From assembly GCA_963765765.1 (NCBI GenBank), contig CAVXYC010000023.1, positions 96,001 to 160,000 of the forward strand: DNA of 64,000 nt, written 5' to 3'. The notes under the pieces were generated by a model, which saw only the letters and a program-made list of their open reading frames with translations, was not told the DNA's origin and made no database searches. Shown here in pieces: positions 23,304-44,545 of the stretch (positions are counted from its first letter, which is position 1; each line of letters starts with the position of its first letter). The translations under genes and the position numbers were made by a program. The stretch comes from an uncultured Chloroflexia bacterium. GTDB taxonomy: Bacteria; Chloroflexota; UBA6077; JACCZL01.

Positions 23304-25343
<2,040 letters not shown>

Positions 25344-28923: not shown

Positions 28924-29319
28924 GGATGTGCCTCCGATGGAGTTTCACGACGGGCCTTACAGCGACGCATCGCAGACTAACCTGAATGCTCGGTGACGGC
29001 AATAGCACATGCAACCGCACCCATGCGAGATCGCAGGAATCCGAAGCGGCACTTCCCTACGCCGCCCCGAGGGCGCTCCGCCTGGTGCAATCTGTTGCGG
29101 GCCTATTGGATCCCCGGTAGTATCGACTGTTAGATCGATGCCGGCCGGCCCACATGGACCGGCAACGGGGGGTGAACACACCGCACGACCACGGCTCCGG
29201 CTCAATAGCCCAGCAGAGCAGTGCCCACTTCCGGGCACAGAGTCATCCCAGCACAACCCTCGATTGGTTCGACGTCATGCCAGGCCGAGCTCGGCCTGGC
29301 TACGTCGTCAGGAGGTGCC

Positions 29320-30489
29320 ATGTCCCGCGGATCGCTTCTCATCGGGCTGCTCGCAATCATTGTCGGCTGTAGCCCTGCTGCTCAACCCTCGCCAACCGCC
29401 GCGCCGGCAAAGCCCGCCGCGGCTCCTACAGCGGCGCCCGCCGCGAAGCCGGCGGAAAAGGAAGCCGCCGCCAAGCCTGCTGAGAAAGCGGCGACATTAG
29501 CGCCCGACTACTTCAAAGATAAGACCGTGCGCGTCATCACGGGCTATGAGCCCGGGAGCGGCTCCGATCAGCAGGCCCGTTATCTGGCGCAGGAGTGGCC
29601 GAAGTTCATCCCAGGCAACCCACGGATGACGGTGACAAACCAGCCTGGAGCCTCCGCCATCATCGCGGCCAATGGCATGTGGGAAGCCAAACCTGACGGC
29701 ATGACGGTCTATTACGGTAGCGGTGGCGGCCCCGAGGTGCAGCTCGCGCGACCCGAGGAAGTTCGCTACAAGTTCGACGAGTTCGTGCGTATCGGAAGTT
29801 TCGAGCAGCGGCCATCGCTCTGGGTGGTTCTCGGAACCGCTCCATACAAGCGTATCCAGGACGCGATCGGTGGTGACAAGGAGTTCACGTTCGGAACGCC
29901 CACCGAAGGCGACAGCTACGAGATCAACATGCTCAAGGACTTCCTGAGGCTGCCGGTGCGTGTGGTGTATGGCATTCAGGCTGGAACTGCGCAGACCCTG
30001 CTTGCCTTTGACCGCAAGGACGTGGATAGCCAGATCACCGGTGGCGCCTGGATCCAGTACGCAAAGCAACGGCCTGGCTGGTGGACGGACAAGTACGTCG
30101 AGCCATTCGCCATCATTGCAAGTCCGTCTATCAAGTTTGTGAACAACGGCGAGATGGACCTGCCGTCCGACGTGAAGAACGTCCGCGATTTCATGACGGA
30201 CGAGCAGAAGCGCCTTTACCAGATTCTTGGCACCGGCGAAAACGAGCTCTACCGCACTGGTTTCCTTCCGCCGGGTACCCCCGCCGAGATTCAACAGGTC
30301 TACTCGGATTCCCTCGCGACAGCGCTGAAGGATGCCGCGTTCCTTGACGGCCTCACCAAGATCATGGGACGGGACCCCGACCCGTTTATCACAGGACCCG
30401 AGCTCAACAGGATCGCCAAGTCATTTGATATGAAGGAGCTCGATCAGCTCCTGATCAAGTATCGGCCCGGATACAAGTCGCCATTCTGA
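29320..30489 (+). CDS. Tripartite tricarboxylate transporter substrate-binding lipoprotein (TctC/Bug-like)
   Basis: RBS GGAGG at 29311; lipobox IVGC; YFKDKTVRVITGYEPGSGSD, IPGNP and NQPGASAIIAAN...KPDG. Confidence 0.8.
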   Translation: MSRGSLLIGLLAIIVGCSPAAQPSPTAAPAKPAAAPTAAPAAKPAEKEAAAKPAEKAATLAPDYFKDKTVRVITGYEPGSGSDQQARYLAQEWPKFIPGNPRMTVTNQPGASAIIAANGMWEAKPDGMTVYYGSGGGPEVQLARPEEVRYKFDEFVRIGSFEQRPSLWVVLGTAPYKRIQDAIGGDKEFTFGTPTEGDSYEINMLKDFLRLPVRVVYGIQAGTAQTLLAFDRKDVDSQITGGAWIQYAKQRPGWWTDKYVEPFAIIASPSIKFVNNGEMDLPSDVKNVRDFMTDEQKRLYQILGTGENELYRTGFLPPGTPAEIQQVYSDSLATALKDAAFLDGLTKIMGRDPDPFITGPELNRIAKSFDMKELDQLLIKYRPGYKSPF

Positions 30490-30566: not shown

Positions 30567-32665
30567 ATGGATACCTTCGGGCAGACAATCCAGATTATGG
30601 CCGAGCTGCTCACCGAACCCGGTGTACTGGTTCGTGCTCATCATGACGGTGCTCATCACCGGGCCACTGGGCATGATCCCGGGCGTTGGCAGCACCACGG
30701 TCATTGCTATCTCCTTGCCGTTCCTGGTGTTGAACGTCGACCCGGTGATCGGGATGGTGTTCGTGGCAGGCCTGCTCTCGCTCGGGAACACCATGGATAT
30801 CATCCCGGCGGTGTTGCTCGGGTATCCCAGCGTCGCCACGGCGGTGGATTTCCTGGAAGGGCACCAGCTTGCGCGACGAGGGCTCGGCGCGCGCGTGCTG
30901 GGCGCCAGCTATGCCGTGTCCATGTTTGGCGGGCTCATTGGGGCGCTAGCCATGGCGTTCGCGCTACCGCTGATGAGGCCGTTCATCACCAGCTTCTCCT
31001 ATGCGGAGATCGCGGCCCTGGCGTTGTTCGGCGTGGCCATGGTGGCCGTTCTTGCGCGTGGCGCCGTCTTCAAGGCCCTCGGCGCGGCGATGATCGGACT
31101 GCTGCTGGCAACGATCGGCTCCACTCCCACGAGCGCGGTCGATCGATTCACCCTCGGTCAGCTCTATCTTGTGGACGGACTTCCTCTAATTCCGACGATT
31201 CTTGGGATCTTTGCTCTTCCCGAGATCGTCGACCTGGCGATGAGTAAGTCCGCCGTGGCCCAGGCCGGGATCGGTGTCCAACCGTGAAGTCTGGATCGGT
31301 TTCAAGGAGGGTCTCCAGCGCTGGCGCACGATTCCGCGACAGAGCCTTTTTGGCGTTTTTATGGGCGCCATCCCGGGCATCGGCGGTGCGGCCATTGAGT
31401 GGCTCTCATACGCCCTCGGTATCGCGTTCTCCAAGGACAAGTCGCAGTTTGGCAAGGGCAGCATGGATGGCATTCTCTTCACGGAGTCTGCCCAGAGCGC
31501 CAAAGAAGCGGGGCAAGCTATCCCGACTCTGGCCTTCGGCATCCCTGGTGGCTCGGGCTGGGCGCTCTGCCTCGCGGCAATGATTGCCTACGGCATCGCT
31601 CCAGGGCTGGGCATGCTGGGTCAGAACTTGGATATCACCATGGGCATCGTTTTGACCATTGGCCTGGGTAACCTGCTGGGTACGATCCTCGCCCTGTTCA
31701 TCACCGGCCAGGTCGCGCGGCTGACCTTGATCCCATACCAGTTTGTTGCCGGGATGATTCTGCCGCTCATGTTCCTGAGCGCCGTGCAAGCCCGCTCGCA
31801 CTGGGGTGACATCGTGGCCCTGCTGAGCATGGGCGCACTCGGCATGGCGATGAAGTGGTTCGGCTGGCCGCGTCCACCGCTGATTCTCGCGTTCGTGCTC
31901 GGGAGGGCCCTGGAGCAGAATCTCTGGACGGCAATCAGTATCGGCGGTCCACTAATCTTCGTCACCCGCCCGTACGCCCTGACGATCATTATCCTGGCCG
32001 TGCTATTCGCGGTCTATATGATCCGGATGCTTCGCTCCACTCAGCAGCAGGTGGAGCAGGCCGTGGCGAGAATTGACCTCGATGCACCGATAGCTCCTCC
32101 GATTTCATCGGGTGGCATGGCGGCGGCCATGCCACCCGATGAACCAGAACGGCCACGCCGATTTGCAGTGCGCCCTCGCTGGCGCTGGGAGCATCTACTC
32201 TGGCTGGCGCTGGCGGCCTGGGCCGGCGGCATCATCTTCCGAGAGAGCTTGCGCTATACAGGGCCGGCGCAGTTCTTCCCGCTGCTGGCCAGCTCAGGGT
32301 TTCTCTTGATCCTGGTGGGGCTAGTCATTACGGACCTGCTCAGGCCTGACCAGCGCGCCAACGAGATCATGGACATCGGCATGCGGACCGGCACGGGCAA
32401 GGAAGCATTCCGAGCATTCTTACCCATCGTTGGCTGGATCATCGGGTTCATTGCGCTGATGGGTATTCTGGGACTGCAGCTCGCCAGCATCGTGTTCCCG
32501 GCGATCTATATCACCGCGTCGCTTCGATGGCGGGGGAAGAAGGCCTTGTGGGTACTCGCACCAGTCGCGCTCTCGACGTTTGTGTCGGTGATCATTATGG
32601 AAAACGTCTTGAACGTCTACTGGCCTGAGCCATTCATTACTTCATGGGTGCAGCGCCGGTTCTAG
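30567..32665 (+). CDS. TctA permease with fused C-terminal TctB-like domain (frameshifted)
   Basis: GMIPGVG, IPAVLLGYP, GAIPGIGG, IPTLAFGIPG and WPRPPLILAFVLG; four extra TM helices after a linker. Confidence 0.8.
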
Positions 32666-32789: not shown

Positions 32790-33351
32790 TCAGCGGGTGA
32801 TTTCAGCCAGCTTCGCATCGATGACCTGGGCAAAGGTCTCGACGTTTTGCGGCAACGAGGCGCTCACCGTTGATGACGAAGACCGGCGTGGCGATGATGC
32901 CGATACTCCGTCCGTTAGTAAGGTCGTCTCGAATCGACGGCAAATCTTCGGCCGAATCGAGACAGGCGCTGAATGGCTCCGGGCTCAATCCGAGATCCAC
33001 GGCGAATTGTTTCAGATTGGCAGATGAGAACTGGCCCTGGTTGTATCCGCGCTGATTCCAGAAGAGAAGATCGTGGTAGTCCCAGAATAGCTCTTCCTGC
33101 CCGGCGCAACGCGCCGCCTGCGCGGCCATTCGACTCTCTTCGCCGATCCAGGCAAAGTCATTCCAGACAACTCGTAGCTGCCCGGTACCGACGTATCGTT
33201 CGATGAGCTGTGGTAACACCTCACGGGTGAATCTTCCACAGCCGGGTCATTGAAAGTCGGCGTATTCCTCCATTGTTACCGGAGCGTCGAGCGAGCCTAG
33301 ATAGCGCTGAGGGTGGGGATCGGACCGTGGAGTTGTGAGGACGTGGAGCAT
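32790..33351 (-). CDS. DsbA/Com1-like selenoprotein (U-P-G-C), no signal peptide; 3' frameshift near 32850
   Basis: LGSLDAPVTMEEYADFQ-TGA(33247-33249)-PGCGRFTREVLPQLIERYV is one frame; cis-Pro loop GIIATPVFVING; hairpin 3' of the TGA. Confidence 0.85.
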
Positions 33352-33394
33352 AGAATCACCAGGAGTCCACCGCGGTTGATGAATGGGAGGCCCG

Positions 33395-34243
33395 ATGCCA
33401 ACACTCCGCTTTGCCAATGCAGAAGACCTACCGCCCGAAGAGCGCGCCGTCCTTGAGCGGATCGCCAAGCGTATGGGGCGCGCTCCCGATGATTTCGGGG
33501 AGATCTTTCGCGCGCAAGCACATTGGCCCACATACCTGGAAGCGAATCACCAGCAAACACTGTATGGCTTTCGGATCAAGGGCCAATTGCCAGAGATCAC
33601 CAAACAAGCTATGCACGTCGCCGTCTCGATGGCGAATCGGTGCGAGTATTGACTTAGCAGCCATGTAGCCGCCGTGCTGCGGCTGGGACTGACCGAGAAG
33701 GGCGTGACCGAGATCCTCGCAGTGTCCGAGCACACCGTGAGCGTGTGTGCCGCGGCCGAGGGACTGCGTATTCCTTCCGATGTGCCAACTGGGAGCACGC
33801 ACCCGGCCACTGCGATCGTTGCTCCGTTGAGCGATGCCGAACTGGGCGATGCCATTTCCACCATCGAAGCAATTGCCGCCTGGAGCCGCGAGCACCTGGA
33901 CACCGCAACCGCGCCGGCATTCTGGCGAACCATCGCGCACCAGCCGCGCTTTCTACAGGCAACCTGGGCCAAGGACCGACTCATAATGGGGGATGGGGAG
34001 CTTGACGCTGCCGCCAAGGTCTGCACGGCCCTCGCCGTGGCGATGTTCCGTCAGAGCTCGTACTGGACCGGGTACCTTGCGCAACAGCTTCGGCACGACT
34101 TCCGGATGAGCGACGCCACGCTGGTTGAGCTTACGGCCGGCGTGATGCACTACGTATCGTTCAATACGGTGGCGCACGGCATGCGCCTGGCCGCGCCACA
34201 CACAGACATGACCGCGAGCGCATTTCGTGAGCCGGCCCGCTGA
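33395..34243 (+). CDS. AhpD/carboxymuconolactone decarboxylase-like selenoprotein (C-E-Y-U), two CMD-like halves
   Basis: HVAVSMANRCEY-TGA(33650-33652)-LSSHVAAVLRLG is in frame with ORF 33674..34243; matches the AhpD CxxC..H motif with Sec. Confidence 0.85.
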
Positions 34244-34498
34244 GTCACCGCTCCACGCTCGCCAGCCTATTTGATGTTCGACGGCTCCTTCCTCCAAGCA
34301 AACTGGGCACGCGGTAGGGATACGGTGTCCGAAGATAGCGCGGCGATTTGTGCACGACGCCCGGGATCGCAGGAATGGGGATACATGTTCCGGTGCCGGG
34401 ATCCCCGGGCTCGTGGAGCGAGATCGCCGCGCTACCCGTAGGGCGCCCATTGTGTGGAAGAGCGTCCGGTGCAGTACTGGCTCTCGCCGTGGAACTAT

Positions 34499-35143
34499 TC
34501 ATCCCCCTTCGAGTTGCCAGATCGGCTTGGGCAATGCCGCGTCACGAACGTCTGCCAGACGACTGGCGCGCTCGCGTCCGGCAACAGCCGACTCGACCGT
34601 GCTATCTGAGAGCTCGAGGCCCAGGGCGTCTACCACCCGCAGGCGAAAGTTGAAATACGCGCAGACCTGCACGATGTCAAGGATGTCGCGGTCGGTCCAG
34701 CCATGGTAGCGGAGCGTCTGCACATCCGCCGCGGTCATGCCGCTGGGATTAATCGTCAGCTTTTCGACGTACTCCAACATCGCAAACTCTGCCGGGCTCA
34801 GGTCCGCTGACCGCCAGTCAGCCTTGAGCGTTTCGGCCACCAGGTCATCGCCGCCCTCTTTACGCAGAGCCTCTGCGTGAGCGGTCGTTCAATACTTGCA
34901 GTTCGCGGTCAGCGAGGTAACCGTGGCAATCATCTCGCGCTGCTGCGTGGTGAGTCCGGAAGGGCCGCGCATGACCTCCCACATCAGCTCCGCCGCGTGC
35001 CACATAGCCTTCGGATTGAGGCTGTGGAGCGAGGAGGGGCTGGGATGCACCCGCTGTTGGCCGCGTTGCTGACGAATCTTCTCGTAGTAATGTAGGAGGT
35101 CCCCGTCAGCCTCGTCGTCGGGGATTGTTCTGATCCAGGTCAT
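34499..35143 (-). CDS. AhpD-like peroxidase-related selenoprotein (C-K-Y-U)
   Basis: REMIATVTSLTANCKY-TGA(34889-34891)-TTAHAEALR is in frame with ORF 34499..34840 (AMLEYVEKLT, AYFNFRLRVVDALG). Confidence 0.9.
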
Positions 35144-35327
35144 GCGCTTCCTCTCATGTGCTCCAAGCACTCGGTATAGCTCACTTCACGGCACTCAACT
35201 CGCTTAGCCCGCGTTATTCACCGCTCACAGCCTACCTGCCACTGAGGATCCTGAGTATCGCGAGAACGTCAACAGGGCATAAGCTTCTTCAGTCAAGGAC
35301 AGCAAGGTAACTCTCCTTGTTGTCATG

Positions 35328-36143
35328 TTAAGGAATGACGGGATCAGGCAAACGTGCCGTGAGCAGCACGTAGCTCAGAATCCCCTGATCGACGGCCTGC
35401 GCCGCGACGCGGGCGAGCGCTGAGGCCTCGTCGAGGTCGACACGGTCGAGCCCGATGCCATGAACCTTCGTCAGTAACTCGCCGCCGGTCAGGCGCAGGC
35501 GAATTTGGCGCACCATCGCAACGAGCGCGGCTCGGTGATCTTCTGTGCGATCGATGGCGAAGCCAGCCTGCTCCAGTTGGCGTACGTATTGCTCCAGCGG
35601 CTGAGCATCGGCAATGCAGCTTACCCAGGCATGGAGCGTCAGGAGCTCAGCGGGCAGAGCTCTCGTTCGGACGAGGTCGCTCAAGCCCAGCCGGCCGCCG
35701 GGGCGGAGGACGCGCGCAAACTCGTTGGCCGCCGTGGGTTTGTCTGGAAACGTGCAGAAGGCGCACTCGCAAATAACGACATCGAACGAGTTGTCGGGGA
35801 ATTGAAGCCGCTCGGCGTCGCCTTGATGGAAATGCACCCGTGCGTCAAGGCCCGCCTCCCTGGCCGTCGTGTCAGCCAGGGCCACGTTCTCAGCCCCGAA
35901 GTCCACGCCGGTCACAGAGCATCCCACCGTCCGGGCGAGGTGGATCGCCGACTCGCCCCGTCCGGAGGCAACATCCAGAACGCGATCCCGCGGAGATAGC
36001 AGGATCAACTCTGCCAGCCGCTCGGTGAGCATCGTCCCACCTGGATGGAACGAGCCAGCCAGGAGCCAGCGCGCCCAATCGCCCTGGTACGCCGCCGCGC
36101 AGCAGGCCTTGAGAATGTCGGGCGAGGGCAACGCTTCAGACAT
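35328..36143 (-). CDS. Class I SAM-dependent methyltransferase with N-terminal CC motif (ArsM-like fold)
   Basis: KACCAAAY, FHPGG, motif I VLDVASGRG, GDAERL, FDVVICECAFC and RVLRPGG. Confidence 0.85.
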   Translation of the reverse strand: MSEALPSPDILKACCAAAYQGDWARWLLAGSFHPGGTMLTERLAELILLSPRDRVLDVASGRGESAIHLARTVGCSVTGVDFGAENVALADTTAREAGLDARVHFHQGDAERLQFPDNSFDVVICECAFCTFPDKPTAANEFARVLRPGGRLGLSDLVRTRALPAELLTLHAWVSCIADAQPLEQYVRQLEQAGFAIDRTEDHRAALVAMVRQIRLRLTGGELLTKVHGIGLDRVDLDEASALARVAAQAVDQGILSYVLLTARLPDPVIP

Positions 36144-37644
36144 CGAGACGCGCAGCCGTCACGGCAGGATCGAACGAAAAGCTCAAGGGGATCACGCGTG
36201 CGGTGCGGCCTTCATGTTCAGCTTGCTGTCGCTCCCGCTGACGCCAGGCAAGCTGCGCCCGGGCCTGCTCGCGATAGCCCACGCTGTTGTACGCGCAGAA
36301 CGGGATCTGCTTCCCATCCGGCAGGAGCATCGCCTTGCAGCACTTCATGAGGTTCTTCTGATTGAACGTCCATGGGTCCATGAAGTCCTGGAACATAATC
36401 ATGAACACGCGCTCGGCAAGCGATCCGAGGCTAAGACCATCGGGAAGATCGCAGGCCGCGCAGGAGATCGCAAAGTTGCTCGCCGCGGTGTCCGAGCCGG
36501 GTACAGATGAGCTCGACCACAGCCCCTCCAGCGCGCCCTGGATATCCGCGCCAAGATCGGGCAGGACCCGGTTGGTGATGTAATCCAGGTAGTCCTCCAC
36601 GTTGATCAGCCGAGGCAGCGGCATGATCCTCTCGCCGTCCACATACGCGTAGGTGACGGCGTTGCACGTGGGGAAGCAACAGGGGACAGGAACGAAGTCC
36701 GAGGCGACAAAAAGTTGCTCTGTCTGAGATTCCAGCGCGCCGATGATATCTGGAATCGTCACTCGTTTCAGTGGGTCGTGCGCGCCATGACGGCCAGCGT
36801 GGAACGCGGGTTGAAAATTGACGCCACGGACGGCCGGATGTTCTAGCCCGAAGCGAACGATGCGCCCGACCTCATGCAGGTTCACGTCCCGCTCGATCGC
36901 CGGCACCAGGATGACCTGACAGCCGATCGAGGCGAGTCGGTCAAGCGCCCGCAGCTTCTCATCCAGGAGGTCCGGCTCACCTCGGATGATTTGATATGTC
37001 TCCAATGCAAAACCATCAAATTGAAAATAGATGGACGGCTGCACGGCCGCGAGCTCGGCGAGAAACGCGTCATCACGGGCAATGCGCTTCCCGTTGGTGT
37101 TGAGCATGACATGCGGGATCTGGCGCTCCTGTGCCGCCCGGAGCATCGGAATGATTTGAGGATGGATACTCGGCTCGCCACCTGAGAACTGGACGACTTC
37201 CGGCCGGCCTTCGGTCGCCACGAAATTGTCCAGGATCGCTTCCACGTCATCGAGTGTCAGGCTGAAGCCTACCCCTGCGTTGGCAAAGCACAATGGACAG
37301 TCCATGTTGCAGGCGCTGTTGACCTCGATGATTCCCAGGCAAACGTGCTGCTGGTGGTCCGGACAGAGCCCGCAATCATGCGGGCAGCCGCGGTCAACCT
37401 GACTGCCAAACGCAAGCGGGAACGTGCCTGGCTTGTTGAACCGCGCCAGTCGCACATAAGCTTCGGCGTCTCCGTAGATCAGCGCCTCTACCCGGCCGTG
37501 ATCAGGGCAGCGCTTGCGCATGATGACCTGATTGTCGCGCAGGAGCACCTGAGCGTCGATCGGTCGCCGACATTCGGGACAAATACTGCGGGTGAGCTCA
37601 TGGAACACGTAATCCGCGTTCCGTGGCGAATCAATCACGAACAT
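36136..37644 (-). CDS. Radical SAM protein, Tes/MJ0619 (COG1964)-like family
   Basis: N-terminal CPEC...KRCPDHG, CPHDCGLC, radical SAM CNMDCPLC, FSGGEPSIHP, IYFQFDG and C-terminal CC...IPFCAYN. Confidence 0.8.
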   Translation of the reverse strand: MFVIDSPRNADYVFHELTRSICPECRRPIDAQVLLRDNQVIMRKRCPDHGRVEALIYGDAEAYVRLARFNKPGTFPLAFGSQVDRGCPHDCGLCPDHQQHVCLGIIEVNSACNMDCPLCFANAGVGFSLTLDDVEAILDNFVATEGRPEVVQFSGGEPSIHPQIIPMLRAAQERQIPHVMLNTNGKRIARDDAFLAELAAVQPSIYFQFDGFALETYQIIRGEPDLLDEKLRALDRLASIGCQVILVPAIERDVNLHEVGRIVRFGLEHPAVRGVNFQPAFHAGRHGAHDPLKRVTIPDIIGALESQTEQLFVASDFVPVPCCFPTCNAVTYAYVDGERIMPLPRLINVEDYLDYITNRVLPDLGADIQGALEGLWSSSSVPGSDTAASNFAISCAACDLPDGLSLGSLAERVFMIMFQDFMDPWTFNQKNLMKCCKAMLLPDGKQIPFCAYNSVGYREQARAQLAWRQRERQQAEHEGRTARVIPLSFSFDPAVTAARLDV

Positions 37645-38198
37645 GCTCCTGTTCTCGGCGGTGAGCGGCTGCCGCCGCCCGAACGGCGTCCACTATCGCA
37701 GAAGGACTGGGGCGGTCCGCGGGCTCCCTGCTGCGGTGGGCGAAGACGATTCGGCCAGCATTATCCAGGACAAAATCGCCGCCAAGCTGGGTAATGTCGG
37801 TTCGGGGCAAACGGAGGGATCGGCCACGCCAAATTCCTCGGACGTACACCATGAGACTCCGCCAGTTCCAGAGTTCGCCGAAGCCGCCCCGCTCCAAGGC
37901 CGAAAGCCCCGTATGCGCGCCGGGTCGGATCACGCAGAAGAGGAAATGGGACATGCTCTCGGTCCGCAAAAAGGGCAGCGCGCTCAGGTGATTCGAACGA
38001 GATAGCCATTACTCTAGCTCCAAGCTCCTCTAGCTCGGTTTGATGATCGCGCAACCGCGCGAGATGCTCTCGGCACGGTATTCAACCCAGCCACCGCAGA
38101 AACACCAGAACCAGCGGTCGCCCGCGCAGCTCAGACAGATGAACCTCGCGTTCATCACGATCCATCAGTACTACGTCGTGAGCGCGCTCACCGATCAC
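37631..38198 (-). CDS. Peroxiredoxin-like/SelL-related selenoprotein (U-I-P-C); frameshift near 37900
   Basis: From GTG 38198: ...VHLSELRGRPLVLVFLRWLG-TGA(38082-38084)-IPCREHLARLR, in frame with ORF 37761..38054; the C-terminal QLGGDFVLD..GRIVFAHRS..PADRP is in ORF 37631..37969. Confidence 0.85.
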
Positions 38199-38208
38199 TC
38201 GACGGGCC

Positions 38209-39567
38209 TCACCGGTGCCGCGCCATGAATCGCACAGTCGCACCTCTCCACCCCTGAGTGAGTGCTTTCAGGGTCACGTCGGCGCTGAGCTGCTGAAGAC
38301 CAAAGCTCAATGTTGGGTAGGCATGCATGGTGCCCGCAAGGTCAGCCACCGAGGACCCAAGCCGCAGAGCAACGGCGAGCTCGTTGATCATCTCGCTCAC
38401 ACCACGGCCCACGAGTGTGGCGCCGATGAGCCGGCCGTTCGCTCGGCAGATGAGCTTAATGAAGCCGCGCGTACTGCCCAGCGTCTGTGCGCGGTCCACG
38501 CGGTCCAGCGGTAGGGTATGCACCCTCGTGTCGGCGTTCCTCGCGCGGCAGGCGATCTCGCTCAGGCCGATATGCGCGACCTCGGGGTCTGTGAAGACGA
38601 CCCAGGGAAGCGCCGATCCCGTGCCTGGCAACGCCCCGGGGAGAAGCGCGTTCCGCGCCGCGACGAATCCCTGCCAACCAGCCAAGTGCGTGAATTGCGA
38701 CGCCCCGGTAACGTCTCCCGCGGCGTACACGTGCCGCTGCGATGTGCGTAGATTGCGGTCAAGTTTCAGCCGACCCGCACGGATCGTGATGCCCGCGCGC
38801 TCCAGACCAAGCTGCCGCAATCTTGGGTGCCGACCAGTAGCCACCAGCAATCCGTCGCCCGTGACCGTTCGATCGCCGAGGCTGACTGTGATCTCCGCGC
38901 CATGTGACCGGATGCGGGTGACGGCGTGCTTCAAGAGCAGCGTCACGCCATCGTCCACGAGTGCTCGAGCGAGCGTCTCGCTGGCGGCCGGATCCGCCAC
39001 GGTCAGGACACGATCGGCATGGTCAATGATGGTGACGCGCGCGCCCAGGCGAGCAAATGCTTGGCCCAGCTCAAGACCAACCGGCCCAGCCCCCAGGACG
39101 ATGAGTCTGTCCGGTGTCTGGGTGACGTTGAAGATGTCACGGTACGTCCAGTGCGGCGTGTCTGCCAGGCCCTCGATCGGTGGCTCAGCGGGGCAGGCGC
39201 CAGTGGCAAGGATGATGCGGCGCGCGGAATGAGCCACTTGGCCCACGCACACCGTGTGCGGTCCTTGCATCTCCCCGCGACCAGTGAGGACTTCCACACC
39301 GAGTCGGCTGAGCTGCGCGGAAGACTCTTGCTGACCGACAACTCGAGCGACTTCCTGAACTCGAGCCTGGATAGGTCCGAGATCGGCTAGTCCTGGCCGA
39401 TGGGCTTGAACGTGCGTGTTGGCCAATTCAATCAGCGTCTTGCTCGGGACGCAGCCATACCAGGTGCAGTCGCCGCCCAGGCGCTCCTCCTCGACAATGC
39501 CGACACGCAGGCCAAGCCGACCCGCGAAGTTGGCCGCAGTCAACCCAGCGGACCCGCCGCCGAGCAC
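38209..39567 (-). CDS. FAD-dependent pyridine nucleotide-disulfide oxidoreductase (LpdA/MerA-like, class I)
   Basis: GGGSAG, redox motif GGDCTWYGCVPSK, GAGPVGLE, YAAGDV and HAYPT; the frame stays open (TDFDLL) to about 39595. Confidence 0.9.
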   Translation of the reverse strand: MLGGGSAGLTAANFAGRLGLRVGIVEEERLGGDCTWYGCVPSKTLIELANTHVQAHRPGLADLGPIQARVQEVARVVGQQESSAQLSRLGVEVLTGRGEMQGPHTVCVGQVAHSARRIILATGACPAEPPIEGLADTPHWTYRDIFNVTQTPDRLIVLGAGPVGLELGQAFARLGARVTIIDHADRVLTVADPAASETLARALVDDGVTLLLKHAVTRIRSHGAEITVSLGDRTVTGDGLLVATGRHPRLRQLGLERAGITIRAGRLKLDRNLRTSQRHVYAAGDVTGASQFTHLAGWQGFVAARNALLPGALPGTGSALPWVVFTDPEVAHIGLSEIACRARNADTRVHTLPLDRVDRAQTLGSTRGFIKLICRANGRLIGATLVGRGVSEMINELAVALRLGSSVADLAGTMHAYPTLSFGLQQLSADVTLKALTQGWRGATVRFMARHR

Positions 39568-39770
39568 AAGGAGATCAAAATCTGTCGTTTGCTCCGCCTA
39601 ATGGACGACGTTAGAACTTATTATGCAAGCTCTTTACGACAGAATATGATTTAAAGTTGCTATCCTTCTACTTCAACTAAAAATCCACCGTAAGCCATCC
39701 GTTTCATCGCGCCTGCTCAGCGAGGCTGGTGGCTCGCTCACAACCCAGACAGTAGGCGGAGACGAAGATG

Positions 39771-40730
39771 TCAAGCGTGGGGGCCATACGATTCCACGCG
39801 GGCGTCACCCCGAGAGCGCGCCGGCTCTCCAGTGCGCGAGCCTGTCCGCGTGGCCACACCTGGAGACCTAGCTGTCGTGGGTGAACGGCGGAACCAGCGA
39901 AGGGCGATAACAGTGCCCGCCAGGCCGAAGCCGGCGAGGATCAGCCAGGCCACCGGAGCGAGGTTCGGGCCTTGCTCTGCGATCCATGCCTGGGCATGGA
40001 AGCCGGCGTCATCGAATCCAGCAGAGGCGTAGACGCCGCTGAGTGCTGAAGCGCCTTGGAGGTGGATGAAGCTCGCCCCGAGCAGTATGAGCAGCGTGCC
40101 TGCCAGAAGGCTCGTTGTGTGCGTGTGGAGTGGTCCGATGGGCAGGGTCCGACCGCGGAGCCAGACGCGTCGTCCGAGCTGGAATCGATCCCACAGCCAG
40201 GCAATGACGAACAGCGGCGCCGCCGTCCCAAGCGAATACGTGAAGAGCAGGGCGGCTCCTGCAAGCGGGTTGGCGGTTGACCCGGCAATGGTGAGCACGG
40301 CCCCCAGAAGCGGTCCCGCGCAGAAGCCCGAGACGCCGTATACCAGGCCGGTGAGGTACACGGAGAGCATGCCGCGACCGGTCTGAACTCGTCCGGCTAG
40401 TTGCTGCGGAATGATGGTGAAACCTGTGCCCGTGATCTCGAGCACGCCGAAGCCGATTAACAGCAGGCCAGCGGCGAGGATCGTTTGGTCGCGATAGTCG
40501 AGCAGCAGCGCGGCCACGAGCGACGCGCCGAGCCCGAGGGGAATGAAGATCGTGCAGAGTCCGGCGAGGAAGAGCATCGTCCGGCCGAGGAGCTCTGACT
40601 TGCTTGTGAACGCATAGGCAAAGAACGCTGGTAAGAGGAGCGCGCTGCACGGGGCGAGCAAGGAGAGGACTCCGCCAGCGAATGCCGCGACGAACGCCGC
40701 CTCAAGCATGCCGTGGCCGAATTCGATCAT
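39771..40730 (-). CDS. CcdA/DsbD-beta transmembrane electron transporter
   Basis: AFAGGVLSLLAPCSALLLPAF and second Cys in GFCAGPLLGAVL. Confidence 0.85.
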   Translation of the reverse strand: MIEFGHGMLEAAFVAAFAGGVLSLLAPCSALLLPAFFAYAFTSKSELLGRTMLFLAGLCTIFIPLGLGASLVAALLLDYRDQTILAAGLLLIGFGVLEITGTGFTIIPQQLAGRVQTGRGMLSVYLTGLVYGVSGFCAGPLLGAVLTIAGSTANPLAGAALLFTYSLGTAAPLFVIAWLWDRFQLGRRVWLRGRTLPIGPLHTHTTSLLAGTLLILLGASFIHLQGASALSGVYASAGFDDAGFHAQAWIAEQGPNLAPVAWLILAGFGLAGTVIALRWFRRSPTTARSPGVATRTGSRTGEPARSRGDARVESYGPHA

Positions 40731-40809
40731 GACCGTGACCTCAGACGGACCTCAACCCGCACGCCCGAGCCACCGTGAGGCGCGTGCCGATGCACGGCGA
40801 ACGCGTCCA

Positions 40810-41633
40810 CTATCGACTGCCTCGGGCGAGCTCGGCCTCGATGGCCTGCATGAATGAGCTCGCACTGAGCGCGCCGACGAGACGCTGACCGTTGAGAAGA
40901 AACGACGGTGTGGCGCTGATGCCGTGGACGCGGGCCGTTGCCAGGTCCTGCTGGATAGCCGAAAGATCGGCGCTAGCCTCCAGGCAGGTCGCGAACGCGA
41001 CCGGCTCGAGTCCTATGGCTGCCGCGAACGACTTGAAATTCGTTGCGCTGAACTGACCGCCGTTCTCGCCGCGCTGGTTCTGGAAGAGATAATCGTGATA
41101 CGGCCAGAACTGCTCCTGCTGACCGGCGCAGCGCGCCGCCTGGGCCGCCTGCCGGGACTCCTGGCCAATCCAGGCGAAGTCATGCCATACGATACGCAGT
41201 TTCCGGTATCGACGTAGGCTGCGATGAGCTGTGGGGCCACCTCACGGGTGAACCGGCCGCAGCCCGTTCACTGGAAGTCGGCGTACTCGTCGAGCACGAT
41301 CGCCGAGGCCGCGGATCCCAGAAAGTAAGGCCCGGGATATACGCCACTGGCCAGCGTGGGCCCCGACAAGCCGGACGCCAGCGGAGACGGCAGGGCCGAT
41401 ACTGTGGGACCAGGTTTGGACGCCACCGGCGTGGTGGGCGCCGCGGTGGGCTCGGTTGCCCGCGCGGTCGGTGACGGAACCGAGACGGTCGCTGTTGGTG
41501 ACGGCGCGCCGGCAGGCGCGCAGGCGGCAGCCATGATGACGATCGCCAGCGCCGACAGCCACGTCGCGGGCGAGGGGCGCGCGCAGACTGTCCAGAGCCG
41601 TCGCTGACAGATTGAAGCACGAACCTGAGACAC
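40810..41633 (-). CDS. Lipoprotein DsbA-like selenoprotein (U-T-G-C); frameshift near 41200
   Basis: Lipobox MAAAC, Pro/Thr linker, LGSAASAIVLDEYADFQ-TGA(41268-41270)-TGCGRFTREVAPQL; the other frame continues WHDFAWIGQES...GISATPSFLLNG to TAG 40810. Confidence 0.85.
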
Positions 41634-41743: not shown

Positions 41744-42433
41744 TCAGCCCTCCGTTCCGACATCGTCGGGCACCAGTCCGCGGCGTACGGCAAAGATCGC
41801 GGCCTGCGTTCGATCCCGCAGACCTGTCTTGGCAAGGATCACTGAGATGTAATTCCGAACCGTGCCCTCGGAGATCATGAGATGGGCGGCGATCTCTCGA
41901 TTGCTGGCGCCACGTCCTAGGAGCGCTAGGACTTCGAGCTCACGGGGGGTGAGTGATTCGCCGCTACCGAGGGCAAGAGGCTCAGTGGTCGCAACGCGGC
42001 CGGCGTGGCGCGCTCGCAGATGGTGCAGGAGCTTCCGCGCGACGGTGGGCTGCAGTGGTGACTCGCCCCGGGCGACCGTCCGGATCGCCTCGGCCAAAGC
42101 GTCCGATCCGATATCTTTGAGAAGGTAGCCGGCAGCCCCTGCTTCAATGGCCTGGAGAACGAGCTCGTCATCGTCAAACGTCGTCAGGACGAGAATCTGC
42201 GCTGACCCTCGGTGGCCGAGGACTGCCTTGGTTGCTGCGATGCCGTCGCGTCGGGGCATGCGCAGGTCCATGAGCACGATGTCCGGTTCATGGTCCCGCA
42301 CCACCCGCTCCGCCTCCAGACCATCCGCCGCCTCGCCGATGACATCGATGTCGGCGTGCAGCTCCAGAAGAGTCCGCAGCCCTTCCCGCATCAGGCTCTG
42401 ATCATCCACGATGACGACGCGAATCGGCTTCAT
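41744..42433 (-). CDS. NarL/LuxR-family response regulator
   Basis: IVDDQ, VLMDLRMP, LTTFDDD and HTH LTPRELEVL...SNREIA. Confidence 0.95.
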   Translation of the reverse strand: MKPIRVVIVDDQSLMREGLRTLLELHADIDVIGEAADGLEAERVVRDHEPDIVLMDLRMPRRDGIAATKAVLGHRGSAQILVLTTFDDDELVLQAIEAGAAGYLLKDIGSDALAEAIRTVARGESPLQPTVARKLLHHLRARHAGRVATTEPLALGSGESLTPRELEVLALLGRGASNREIAAHLMISEGTVRNYISVILAKTGLRDRTQAAIFAVRRGLVPDDVGTEG

Positions 42434-42454
42434 CCGGCGTGCATGCGCCGTTCG

Positions 42455-43594
42455 TCAGGCTGCCGCACGTGCCGCGCTCCCAATTGGAATCTCGGCCCGG
42501 AGTTCCCCACCGCCTCCGTCCGCCGTACCAAAGCTTAGTTGGCCGCCGCAAAGCTCAACGCGTTCACGCAACCCGGTAAGTCCGAAGCCTTGCCTAGGTC
42601 CGGAGCCGGCCATCGTCGGCCCTGGCCCATCGTCGCGCACATACACGGAGACCAATGTGCTAGAGCCCTCGAGAGCCACGACCACCTGGCGAACATGAGT
42701 GGCATGCTTCTGCACATTCGTGAGCCCTTCCTGGGCAACTCGATAGAGCGCCTGGGCAACGTCGGACGGAACGTGTTGATCCGGTGGGAGTGAAATCCGC
42801 AGCTCCACCTCGATCGTCGTCGCATCCGAGAAGTCTCTGGTGAGCTTCTCTAGCGCGTGAGCCAGGCTTAGCTCCTCGAGGGTCGCTGCTCTTAGAGCGC
42901 CAACGGATCGACGCACGTCCTGGAGCGAGTCTAGTGTGAGACGGCGCGCCAGGCGCACCGCGGCCAGAGCCCGCTCCTGCTGGGTGGCCGCGAGCTTTTC
43001 GGCCGCCTCGAGCTGCACATTGATGACGGTTAGATAGTGGGCCAGTGAGTCGTGAATCTCACGTGCCATGCGGTTCCGCTCTTGTGCAACCGCGGCCAAG
43101 CGGGCGCGCTCGCTAAGGTCCTGAAGTTGTTGGTGCGCCTTGGACAGTTCGTCGTAAAGCGCCTGTAGGCGGTGCCGGCTGGACGCCTGTCGCAGGACGG
43201 CGAGCGTCAGCACGATCGTGAGCAGATAAAGCGGCAGGACGAAGGAGACGTAACCCGGCAGCTCCGCCAGGCGGTCGGGCCAGGCATACTGCAGCAGGTT
43301 CACGCCGTAAGCCGCCCATACCAGCAGGCTCAGGAGCACGCCGGGCCGCTCCTCGAAGAGCAGCAGCGCTCGACTGGCCGGGACGAGGTAAATCAACGTC
43401 GGCCGAATAAGGGTCCCGTGCGCGCGCACAATCAGGTACCCGATTACGAGCTCCAGCAACAGGCAGCCGATACGCTTCCAATAGGGCGCCTCGGTGCCTG
43501 GCGCTCGGAGCTCGACCAGCGCCATCAACCCCGCCAGGGACGTAAACGTGACGACATACTCTGGTGTCAGGCCGTCCCGCGGTGGTGACAGCAT
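42455..43594 (-). CDS. HisKA_3 membrane sensor histidine kinase (N-terminus probably extends to about 43670)
   Basis: ERNRMAREIHDSLAH, QEGLTNVQKHA, DDGPG and GFGLTGLRERV. Confidence 0.9.
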   Translation of the reverse strand: MLSPPRDGLTPEYVVTFTSLAGLMALVELRAPGTEAPYWKRIGCLLLELVIGYLIVRAHGTLIRPTLIYLVPASRALLLFEERPGVLLSLLVWAAYGVNLLQYAWPDRLAELPGYVSFVLPLYLLTIVLTLAVLRQASSRHRLQALYDELSKAHQQLQDLSERARLAAVAQERNRMAREIHDSLAHYLTVINVQLEAAEKLAATQQERALAAVRLARRLTLDSLQDVRRSVGALRAATLEELSLAHALEKLTRDFSDATTIEVELRISLPPDQHVPSDVAQALYRVAQEGLTNVQKHATHVRQVVVALEGSSTLVSVYVRDDGPGPTMAGSGPRQGFGLTGLRERVELCGGQLSFGTADGGGGELRAEIPIGSAARAAA

Positions 43595-43664: not shown

Positions 43665-44545
43665 CTACTCCACGATCAAGCGTGCCTTCATATTCTGGTG
43701 GAGCGTGCAAAGGTATTCAAATGTGCCCGGCTCCGAGAACGTTACGCTGAACGTCGAGCCTGGGCCCATGCGGCCGGAATCAAAGCCCTTGTCAGTCCCT
43801 GTCACCGTGTGCGCCAGCGGGTCATCGTTCGTCCATGTTACCGTGGACCCCACCCGGACCGCGGCGGTCGCGGGGAGAAACGAGTAGCTCTGAATCCCCA
43901 GGCGCCCGAGCGCTGCTGCCCCGAGCGTGTCGGTTGGCACCGCGCCGCTCGCCCCACTGAAGTAGAGGTTGGCGCGCATCACCCAGTCCCGGGTCGCGCC
44001 AGCGTCCTGATGGCAGAGCGCGCACGCGTGGCTGTCCTGAGGTGGCGTGGCATATGTGCGATCGGGCCGGAAGGCCACCCACTCCCACTCACCCGCGCGC
44101 GCGACCTGGTAGGCCTCTCCAAAACCGGGCTCCTTGCGCTCTACAAATATTCCCGTGAGCTGCTCCTTCTGGAAGCGACGTCGACATCGAGCTCCGGGTT
44201 GCCGTTCGCATCGAGCTTGGCGCGCCACGTCTCCATGACCATGATTGAGCCATAGGGAAATACCTGATTGGGTGGCGCGGAAGGATTTCCCGCCGCGGCC
44301 TCCGCGTTGCCGTAAATTACCCGGACCTGGCGATTGTCCGGTCGATCGAAGACGTAGAGTTGGGGCCATTGTTCATAGCCCTCGGGGAAACCCACGCGGT
44401 CCTCGCTTGGTGCTGGTTTGGGCTGTGCGGCGGTCTGGGCGTGGGCGTCCGATGGTGTCGAATTGAGCCGGGCCAGCTCGATTGGAACGAGTACGACGCT
44501 TGCGAGGACGGAGATCAGCGTGATCCTGAGCACGGAGACGTTCAT
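43665..44545 (-). CDS. Secreted cytochrome P460/c'-beta family domain fused to a cupredoxin (frameshift near 44180)
   Basis: Signal peptide; FPEGYEQW, FPYGSIMVME, GEWEW, CALCH heme motif and DWVM; then WTNDDPLAHTVT and YLCTLHQNM type-1 Cu ligands. Confidence 0.8.

Follow-up and report, generated by a model that had tools for sequence, protein, structure and literature searches.

Can five genes lying within 9 kb of one bacterial contig, each of them interrupted by an in-frame TGA, all code for selenoproteins, and, if they do, what ties them to the radical S-adenosylmethionine (SAM) enzyme and the methyltransferase encoded in their midst? The locus that raises this question occupies positions 32790 to 41633 of the window (the whole stretch of DNA analysed here, 64,000 nucleotides long), which is contig C23:96001-160000 of a metagenome-assembled genome (MAG) from an uncultured Chloroflexia bacterium. 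The MAG, referred to below as G000, amounts to 6.49 Mb in 33 contigs, is 91.8% complete and 6.9% contaminated, and has a GC content of about 61%. Nine genes lie between the two borders (Table 1), and the five that contain an in-frame TGA code for two DsbA-like proteins, a two-domain CMD/AhpD-like protein (double-AhpD), an AhpD-like protein and a SelL-related peroxiredoxin (Prx)-like protein. These five TGAs are very probably real selenocysteine (Sec) codons, because the genome carries the Sec machinery, the homologs have TGA or Cys at the corresponding columns, and hairpins behind the codons are conserved.

The five TGAs, for which a first-pass annotation of the same DNA had given coordinates and motifs that proved exact, all terminate open reading frames (ORFs) under translation table 11, and each of them stands at the redox Cys position of a thioredoxin-fold or AhpD-fold protein, with an open frame behind it that carries on the same domain. 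The further statement of that annotation, that in each case the domain continues in frame, holds locally behind each TGA but not to the end of the gene in DsbA#1, the Prx-like gene and DsbA#2, where a frame break comes later. As regards decoding, the annotation had made its proposal depend on selA, selB, selC and selD, and all of them are in the genome: selA and selB are adjacent on contig C14, both scoring above the curated cut-offs, selD is likewise above its curated cut-off and has a TGA of its own in the motif GAG-U-ACK, and a tRNA-SeC(tca) was found by aragorn on contig C15, with a 6-bp anticodon stem, a long extra arm and two acceptor-stem mismatches in the drawing. The site of this tRNA is matched by the Rfam general tRNA model with 33 bits and is not listed by the Rfam tRNA-Sec model.

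Read-through homologs of the five genes were searched in 60 related genomes. The annotation had looked to Cys-containing orthologs aligned at the Sec residue for support, and such orthologs exist, since TGA or Cys occupies all five columns in the relatives. The DsbA column holds 12 TGA and 17 Cys among 29 hits, the double-AhpD column 3 TGA and 3 distinct Cys, the AhpD column 6 TGA and about 20 Cys, and the Prx column 14 TGA (4 of them in a UxxU motif) and 9 Cys. The double-AhpD homologs of G032 and G028 are matched over 252-279 of 286 residues at 47-48% identity and contain one TGA each. Some homologs of the other families contain more than one: two TGAs, forming the classic SelL motif UxxU, are present in the closest family-level Prx homologs (L118, L121, L123 and L124, from G005, G004, G007 and G003, respectively), the window gene having UxxC, and two in-frame TGAs are also found in the AhpD-like homologs L081 (G013:C376) and L083 (G032:C151). 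Members of another Prx subfamily (L126, L130 and L136, from G019, G018 and G014) have a TGA three residues past the aligned column (…SPG-U-T…), and these proteins are apparently a further type of Sec-peroxiredoxin in the same class. A genome-wide TGA scan with a filter on GC content at third codon positions was dropped as unspecific, since its 1651 candidates, of which 91 have Cys at +/-3, included no more than 2 of the 5 known sites; one candidate, at window position 2683, lies on the antisense strand of a Gfo/Idh/MocA-like gene.

Public sequence data bear on the reality of the codons as well. The best-matching public sequencing run is a soil metagenome, the matches from X2, X4 and X5 being short pieces only. 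The TGA at 33247 is retained in the public X1 record with 0 differences, that at 34889 in an X4 contig that is about 90% identical, and that at 41268 in a 1809-nt X1 contig. Thus, the confirmation in reads that the annotation had called for is in part at hand, as these three codons are kept in public contigs and those at 33650 and 38082 fall outside the listed ones.

A hairpin follows each TGA, as the annotation had stated. It is conserved in the Prx, AhpD and, weakly, double-AhpD families, where the stems show two-sided changes among the homologs (Table 1). Across its homologs the Prx hairpin has the loop GGUU or AGUU, and this structure differs from the minimum free energy fold of the single sequence. 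The DsbA family provides evidence of another kind, in that the 47 nt behind the codon are more stable in the TGA forms (13 sequences) than in the Cys forms (17 sequences), with -17.1 vs -13.1 kcal/mol and p 0.009, the corresponding values for the other families being p 0.05 for Prx, 0.19 for AhpD and 0.2 for double-AhpD; these p-values are one-sided and, the sequences being kin, overstate the difference. The TGA forms are more stable downstream than the Cys forms despite a lower GC content.

Three sets of observations limit the case for reading the TGAs as Sec codons. In single-sequence folds the stability of the hairpins is not above that of shuffled sequences (z -0.1 to -2.1), so that the folds are no evidence by themselves and their support comes from conservation in homologs. 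For the DsbA family, an ungapped alignment fold yields no consensus structure, since distant members do not have their hairpins in register. Finally, among the listed public contigs none spans the TGAs at 33650 and 38082 or the break of the Prx-like gene at about 37910.

All five Sec genes are assigned to catalogued families as new members, and the unusual part is that five stand within 9 kb. The Rcas_1661 (seleno)lipoproteins, the AhpD-like proteins with CxxU and the Prx-like/SelL proteins with UxxC or UxxU are among the selenoprotein families listed in the accessible part of a recent review (PMC13188914), and the window genes agree with them in fold, in the place taken by Sec and in having both Sec and Cys forms among their relatives. 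DsbA#1 matches Thioredoxin_4 with 96 bits and NF041057, the model of the Rcas_1661 family, with 135.2 bits (cut-off 190, the gene being cut by a frame break); no signal peptide is present in its assembled frame, the start of which is uncertain. The C-terminal part of DsbA#2, a gene cut by a frame break too, reaches 88.9 bits for NF041057 (cut-off 190) and 54.8 bits for Thioredoxin_4, and the protein has a signal sequence, a Cys in what looks by eye like a lipobox (AAAC) and a linker rich in Pro, Thr and Ala. The double-AhpD protein matches CMD (54.6 bits) and ahpD_dom (42.7 bits), scores only 42.8 bits for TIGR01926 (cut-off 81.8), and has a weak match of 25 bits to the NCBIfam AhpD-like 'arsenosugar biosynthesis-associated peroxidase-like protein'. 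The AhpD-like gene passes TIGR01926 with 130.7 bits against the same cut-off. The Prx-like gene, which belongs to Pfam AhpC-TSA_2, matches NF040769 (SelL-related redox protein) in two frames, the N part scoring 85.8 bits and the C part 66.4 bits, so that the cut-off of 120 is exceeded by the sum and by neither piece.

The other four genes had been annotated as CcdA, a class I flavin disulfide reductase, a Tes-family radical SAM enzyme and a methyltransferase with a CC motif. Profile and PDB matches agree with CcdA (DsbD_TM, PF02683, 42.3 bits, above the gathering cut-off of 27.1), with the class I disulfide reductase, with the radical SAM enzyme and with the methyltransferase, but membership of the Tes family is not supported, as the radical SAM enzyme scores 315.4 bits against a cut-off of 450 (NF045702). 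It also stays under the cut-off of TrsS (NF045646), with 308.7 against 490 bits, and ten further members of its clade behave in the same way, with 279-344 bits for Tes and 310-373 bits for TrsS, all under the cut-offs. The relationship to Tes is nevertheless clear, since the enzyme matches GDGT-MAS (7tol) near full length, over residues 16-461, with E 1.7e-76, and the Zn-ribbon, the CX3CX2C motif and the auxiliary-cluster cysteines (GCPxDCGLCP) are invariant. In the methyltransferase, residues 110-200 find their best PDB matches in arsenite methyltransferases (4fr0, 5evj), and the alignment places Cys127 opposite Cys174 and Cys176 opposite Cys224 of CmArsM (chain 4fr0), the two residues that we take to be the As(III)-binding pair of that enzyme. 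The cysteines are kept in the orthologs, C14 in 47/48, C15 in 48/48, C127 in 53/53 and C176 in 52/52. The reductase scores 193.6 bits for Pyr_redox_2 and 333.7 bits for MerA (TIGR02053), under the cut-off of 454. As to the substrate, the ArsM-type cysteines together with the MerA-like reductase would point to a thiophilic one, and the Tes homology together with lipid genes in the neighbourhood of the cassette would point to a lipid.

On the minus strand the order of the genes is DsbA(U)-CcdA upstream, then the reductase, Prx(U), the radical SAM enzyme, the methyltransferase and AhpD(U). The Prx(U) gene sits between those of the reductase and the radical SAM enzyme and overlaps both, the methyltransferase gene shares 8 nt with the end of the radical SAM gene, and AhpD(U) follows 185 nt downstream on the same strand. 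The layout from the reductase to AhpD is thus compatible with a single transcript, as far as may be inferred from gene spacing. A scan for promoters and terminators gave fewer sites than in shuffled sequences and was uninformative. The composition profile has no anomaly in the window, and hence no sign of a recent foreign island.

Table 1. Features of the locus, in window coordinates; for hairpins, distances are from the UGA and changes are those seen among the aligned homologs.
Feature	Position	Strand	Remarks
DsbA-like #1, thioredoxin-fold selenoprotein gene, UxxC	32790-33351	-	TGA 33247-49; DFQ-U-PGC
Hairpin behind the DsbA#1 TGA	33206-33243	-	outer stem and, inside it, CACC/GGUG with loop CGUGA; -20.1 kcal/mol (z -1.3), by itself not significant
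Two-domain CMD/AhpD-like selenoprotein gene, CxxU	33383-34243	+	TGA 33650-52; CEY-U
Double-AhpD hairpin core	33669-33682	+	4 bp, loop CGUGCU, 20 nt after UGA; two-sided changes in 1/4 pairs, 4 sequences; weak
AhpD-like 'peroxidase-related enzyme' selenoprotein gene, CxxU	34499-35143	-	TGA 34889-91; CKY-U
AhpD hairpin	34863-34877	-	6 bp, 3-nt loop GGC/GUU, 15 nt after UGA; two-sided changes in 3/6 pairs, 7 sequences
Four-Cys ArsM-like class I SAM methyltransferase	35328-36143	-	profile and PDB matches
Radical SAM enzyme, Tes/TrsS superfamily	36136-37644	-	Zn_ribbon_HMPTM and Radical_SAM; without in-frame TGA
SelL-related Prx-like selenoprotein gene, UxxC	37631-38243	-	TGA 38082-84; LG-U-IPC
Prx hairpin	38047-38062	-	6 bp, GGUU tetraloop, 22 nt after UGA; two-sided changes in 4/6 pairs, 14 sequences
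Class I flavoprotein disulfide reductase, CxxxxC redox motif	38209-39567	-	Pyr_redox_2
AT-rich spacer and truncated small CxxC ORF, overlapping the 3' end of CcdA	39591-39790	-	ORF map, contig matches
CcdA/DsbD-type membrane thiol-disulfide transporter	39771-40730	-	DsbD_TM
DsbA-like (seleno)lipoprotein gene #2, UxxC	40810-41633	-	TGA 41268-70; DFQ-U-TGC

How much of this arrangement is conserved was addressed by a public scan covering one genome per species (595 relatives), in which loci were counted among the best 80 of 595. The scan places orthologs of the radical SAM enzyme, at 45-75% identity, in Chloroflexota, Acidobacteriota, Dormibacterota, Armatimonadota, Verrucomicrobiota and Actinomycetota, and metagenomes contain 4819 homologous proteins at E<=1e-30. 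In 54/80 loci the next gene downstream of the radical SAM gene is the methyltransferase, and the pairing follows identity, being found in 53 of the 56 loci with at least 45% identity and room downstream, and in 1 of the 22 with 43% or less. The same pair, with the same conserved cysteines and a radical SAM enzyme under both the Tes and the TrsS cut-offs, is also seen in MAGs labelled Nitrososphaera (L199) and Methanococcoides (L218), where a binning error is possible. A homolog of the reductase is in the flanks of 25/80 loci, in 8 of them directly upstream on the same strand, and it stands beside the cassette in G022 and G060 likewise. Other recurrent neighbours are a major facilitator superfamily transporter (11 loci), a CDP-alcohol phosphatidyltransferase (6), PlsY (5), a patatin-like protein (5) and MerR (4). 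Judging from this distribution, the conserved unit is the cassette of reductase, radical SAM enzyme and methyltransferase, spread horizontally over soil phyla, and we read the selenoproteins around it as a lineage-specific accretion. Accordingly, of the neighbourhood whose conservation the first-pass annotation had wanted checked, the linkage of radical SAM enzyme, methyltransferase and reductase stands, but the set of nine genes is not conserved, as witnessed by G001 and by the 50/53 loci without redox partners described below.

Redox partners join the cassette in only five other loci, in varied arrangements. In L150 (Dormibacter) an AhpD gene with TGA, the reductase and a Prx gene with TGA stand beside it, in L151 (Anaerolineae) a Prx gene with TGA, CcdA and the reductase, and in L182 (Limnocylindrales) a DsbA(Cys)-CcdA pair. 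In G060, which belongs to the same class as the window genome, the reductase, radical SAM and methyltransferase genes are convergent with CcdA-DsbA(TGA), and in G008 a Prx gene with TGA, the reductase and the radical SAM gene lie together. CcdA is paired with a DsbA-like gene in G003, G007, G008, G038 and G060, and the pair with Sec stands by itself in G003, G007, G008 and G038.

What would the Sec proteins do beside the cassette? It is quite possible, and this is the account that we tentatively prefer, that they act as an accessory reductant relay serving it. In such a relay, NAD(P)H would reduce the CxxxxC motif of the flavoprotein reductase, the reductase would reduce the selenenylsulfide of the Prx-like and/or AhpD-like proteins, and these would re-reduce the cysteine pairs of the methyltransferase or shield the Fe-S radical SAM enzyme. 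In the disulfide cascade of ArsM, it is thioredoxin that re-reduces the enzyme. An outward branch would be provided by CcdA, from which the DsbA-like lipoprotein beyond the membrane would receive its reducing equivalents. That the radical SAM enzyme and the methyltransferase act on a thiophilic substrate, with a metalloid or chalcogen bound at the ArsM-like cysteines, and possibly on a lipid-like carbon chain, we regard as unlikely. A fuller scheme can be drawn, in which the cassette would be a new and widespread soil pathway, neither Tes, TrsS nor ArsM, that uses Tes-type radical chemistry to link a soft metalloid or chalcogen (As, Se or S), held by the cysteines of the methyltransferase, to an unactivated carbon within a lipid-like chain, with methylation as the next step, giving an arsenolipid or a seleno/thio-lipid type of product, with the selenoprotein relay keeping the cysteines reduced in some Chloroflexota and Dormibacterota; in this complete form it is distinctly unlikely. 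The role in metalloid detoxification that the first-pass annotation had put forward is accordingly kept here as a hypothesis.

A number of observations count against the relay or against a metalloid- or chalcogen-handling cassette, and the rival explanations draw on them. The methyltransferase stays just under the cut-off of the DVU_1556 family (NF045667, 142.1 vs 155 bits) and far under that of ArsM (NF008823, 112.7 vs 263 bits). Arsenic-resistance genes are absent from the recurrent neighbours of the cassette in the best 80 loci, and these neighbours point as much to lipids as to metalloids. Among the loci in which the radical SAM gene is paired with the methyltransferase, 50/53 lack genes for Prx, AhpD, DsbA and CcdA alike within the flanks retrieved; in G001, a 92% complete genome of the same genus, an ortholog of the DsbA gene with Sec is present and the radical SAM, AhpD and double-AhpD queries gave no hit; the left-hand genes, DsbA#1 and double-AhpD, are not recurrently associated with the cassette, and in G032 and G028 homologs of double-AhpD occur without the other families. 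It is therefore possible, if somewhat doubtful, that the selenoprotein genes are genuine and merely co-located, that is, that the DsbA-CcdA pair, the AhpD and Prx antioxidant genes and the cassette are separate modules gathered by rearrangement or by a shared regulation through selenium supply. The self-standing DsbA(Sec)-CcdA pairs, the 50 loci just mentioned and G001, with its DsbA ortholog and without a hit for the cassette, are what this explanation would lead one to expect, as are the gene orders, which are unlike among the six combining loci. It accounts less well for the recurrence of redox genes with Sec or Cys beside the cassette in five other loci of different phyla, classes or families and at differing levels of identity, for the way in which Prx(U) is fitted in between the genes of the reductase and the radical SAM enzyme, overlapping both, and for the strong enrichment of the reductase beside the cassette. 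An explanation that partly overlaps this one holds that the cassette is a membrane-lipid system for tail coupling or modification of the Tes type, without any metalloid, in which the Sec and thiol proteins protect the Fe-S enzyme or repair peroxidised lipid. The near-full-length homology to GDGT-MAS, the CDP-alcohol phosphatidyltransferase, PlsY and patatin genes in the neighbourhood and the presence of Acidobacteriota and Chloroflexota among the carriers speak for it, and bacterial homologs of Tes have been proposed as synthases of branched glycerol dialkyl glycerol tetraethers (brGDGT) in the accessible passages of PMC8941075, bioRxiv 10.1101/2022.04.07.487437 and PMC11868695. All the same, 11/11 tested members of the clade are under the Tes cut-off, the near-obligatory partner keeps the metalloid-binding cysteines of ArsM and an N-terminal CC pair that would have no obvious use in a lipid C-methylase, the reductase is a disulfide reductase with CxxxxC, and no paired methyltransferase appears in the Tes passages of the three sources just cited. 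We consider a pure lipid system improbable.

A different doubt concerns the state of the locus itself, since the relay could be broken in this strain if the indels, the startless reductase and the truncated CxxC ORF were real lesions of a decaying locus. The 9 kb contain four or five lesions, and relatives with intact frames exist, so that the window copy is the odd one. The frame of DsbA#1 breaks near 32852, the true C-terminus lying in another frame that ends at 32790-92, and the X1 and X4 contigs have 2 extra bases after 32852, which restore the frame and a normal DsbA C-terminus. DsbA#2 breaks at 41202, where the X1 contig of 1809 nt (20 mismatches, 98.8% identical, depth 13) restores the frame by one extra base. 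The Prx-like gene breaks near 37910, and its G015 ortholog is continuous there. All these indels are of 1-2 nt, and 2/3 of them coincide with short homopolymers (GGG, GG), a point against decay. Furthermore, indels are general in this assembly: the essential rpoB gene is in one frame except for a stretch of about 500 nt (G000 C20:327266-327760), over which the match to its family model passes through three frames in succession, a tuf-like GTPase gene (C20:253894-254767) is split in two frames, and in the window the TctA gene (30622-32665, +) is frameshifted near 31270-31290, with its C half in another frame and fused to a TctB domain. Because these genes are split as well and public short-read contigs have an intact frame at 32852 and at 41202, the three indels in the Sec genes are probably long-read assembly errors rather than decay. 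An assembly error is also a probable, if less certain, cause of the missing start of the reductase, which has no ATG, GTG or TTG before the first beta-strand of its Rossmann fold and a TAG just upstream; its orthologs start with M 3-6 codons earlier. Upstream of it, 39568-39790 comprises a 117-nt AT-rich spacer and the truncated small CxxC ORF, for the remnant of which no Pfam family was found. Two related metagenome contigs stop matching exactly at this spacer, at 39590 and 39708, as decay would also have it, and the stretch seems either to vary between strains or to be misassembled. If, on the other hand, the startless reductase and the truncated ORF reflect genuine damage, as they may, this would tell against a working relay. 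With the Sec machinery intact, decay of the locus as a whole is very improbable.

Why the locus matters can be stated with or without the relay. With five Sec genes in 9 kb, it is among the denser selenoprotein clusters described, and it illustrates how UGA recoding combined with long-read indels can conceal a whole redox module from gene callers. Bacterial Tes homologs serve in the literature as candidate markers for producers of brGDGT, which are palaeothermometer lipids, and a clade with methyltransferase and reductase partners may do other chemistry; if the metalloid/chalcogen-lipid reading were true, many of the 'bacterial Tes homologs' counted as brGDGT markers would be something else. 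Supplementary tables of PMC8941075 and PMC11868695 list bacterial Tes homologs and may bear on the use of this clade as a brGDGT marker. The cassette is carried by cultured strains (Ktedonobacteria bacterium brp13, Dictyobacter alpinus and Streptomyces sp. DSM 40971), and the question is thus open to bench work.

Some other genes of the window deserve mention. Directly upstream of the DsbA-lipoprotein gene and on the same strand, 41744-43594 (-) codes for a response regulator of the NarL/LuxR type and a HisKA_3 histidine kinase, which by position is a possible candidate regulator of the locus. It is followed at 43665-44369 (-) by an ORF that joins a cytochrome P460 domain and a cupredoxin (plastocyanin/azurin-like) domain. 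On the other side, about 8 kb from the locus, another thiol-redox gene at 23304-25343 (-) encodes a large DUF255/Thioredox_DsbH thioredoxin-domain protein with a part resembling GlcNAc 2-epimerase, and a TctC-like receptor gene at 29221-30489 lies upstream of the split TctA.

Which known systems come closest to this locus? The first-pass annotation knew of no described locus that combines such Sec families with a radical SAM/methyltransferase pair, a claim of novelty that is too strong, since in the accessible part of PMC13188914 all five Sec families are catalogued and multi-selenoprotein neighbourhoods (the SAO system, the Tso operon and TrsS; Haft & Gwadz 2023, Haft & Tolstoy 2025) are described. 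From the 2025 work the review lists TrsS, a selenoprotein of the radical SAM type related to Tes, as well as selenoproteins in which ArsM and AhpD are fused (NF041537). These neighbourhoods resemble the window in that several Sec gene families are packed around non-redox enzymes, with Tes-related radical SAM enzymes and methyltransferases of the ArsM type. By contrast, the radical SAM enzyme and methyltransferase of the window are not selenoproteins and are under the cut-offs of TrsS, ArsM/AhpD and DVU_1556, its Sec genes are DsbA-, AhpD- and SelL-like, and its host is a soil MAG of the Chloroflexota type, the distinction being drawn from what the review lists. A literature search on DVU_155x locus tags gave no matching paper.

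With Tes/GDGT-MAS the window radical SAM enzyme has in common the Zn-ribbon, both cysteine motifs and an alignment near full length; unlike Tes, its clade falls under the cut-off and is tied to a methyltransferase and often to a disulfide reductase, neither of which occurs in the accessible passages on Tes. The likeness of the window methyltransferase to ArsM (4fr0, 5evj) consists in the class I fold, the As(III)-cysteine pair, which is aligned and conserved, and an N-terminal Cys pair. The pairing of a radical SAM gene with ArsM has precedents in ArsS (arsenosugar) and ArsL (arsinothricin), as described in the accessible parts of PMC8552651 and bioRxiv 10.1101/2024.02.01.577332. Unlike in these pairs, the radical SAM partner in the window is of the Tes type, the methyltransferase fails the ArsM cut-off and ars genes are missing from the recurrent neighbours. 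A literature search, with supplements outside its scope and some sources accessible in part, returned no paper that pairs a Tes-like radical SAM enzyme with an ArsM-like methyltransferase, and, to that extent, the near-obligatory pairing of a clade akin to Tes and TrsS with a disulfide reductase and an ArsM-like methyltransferase of the four-Cys kind, at times in the company of selenoproteins, appears to be undescribed. The outward branch of the proposed relay has its closest counterpart in the CcdA-ResA/DsbA extracytoplasmic pathway, with which it shares a gene for a CcdA-type protein beside one for an exported thioredoxin-fold lipoprotein, the pair being kept in relatives; it differs from that pathway in that the exported partner of the window has Sec in place of the first Cys and a flavoprotein reductase gene stands next door.

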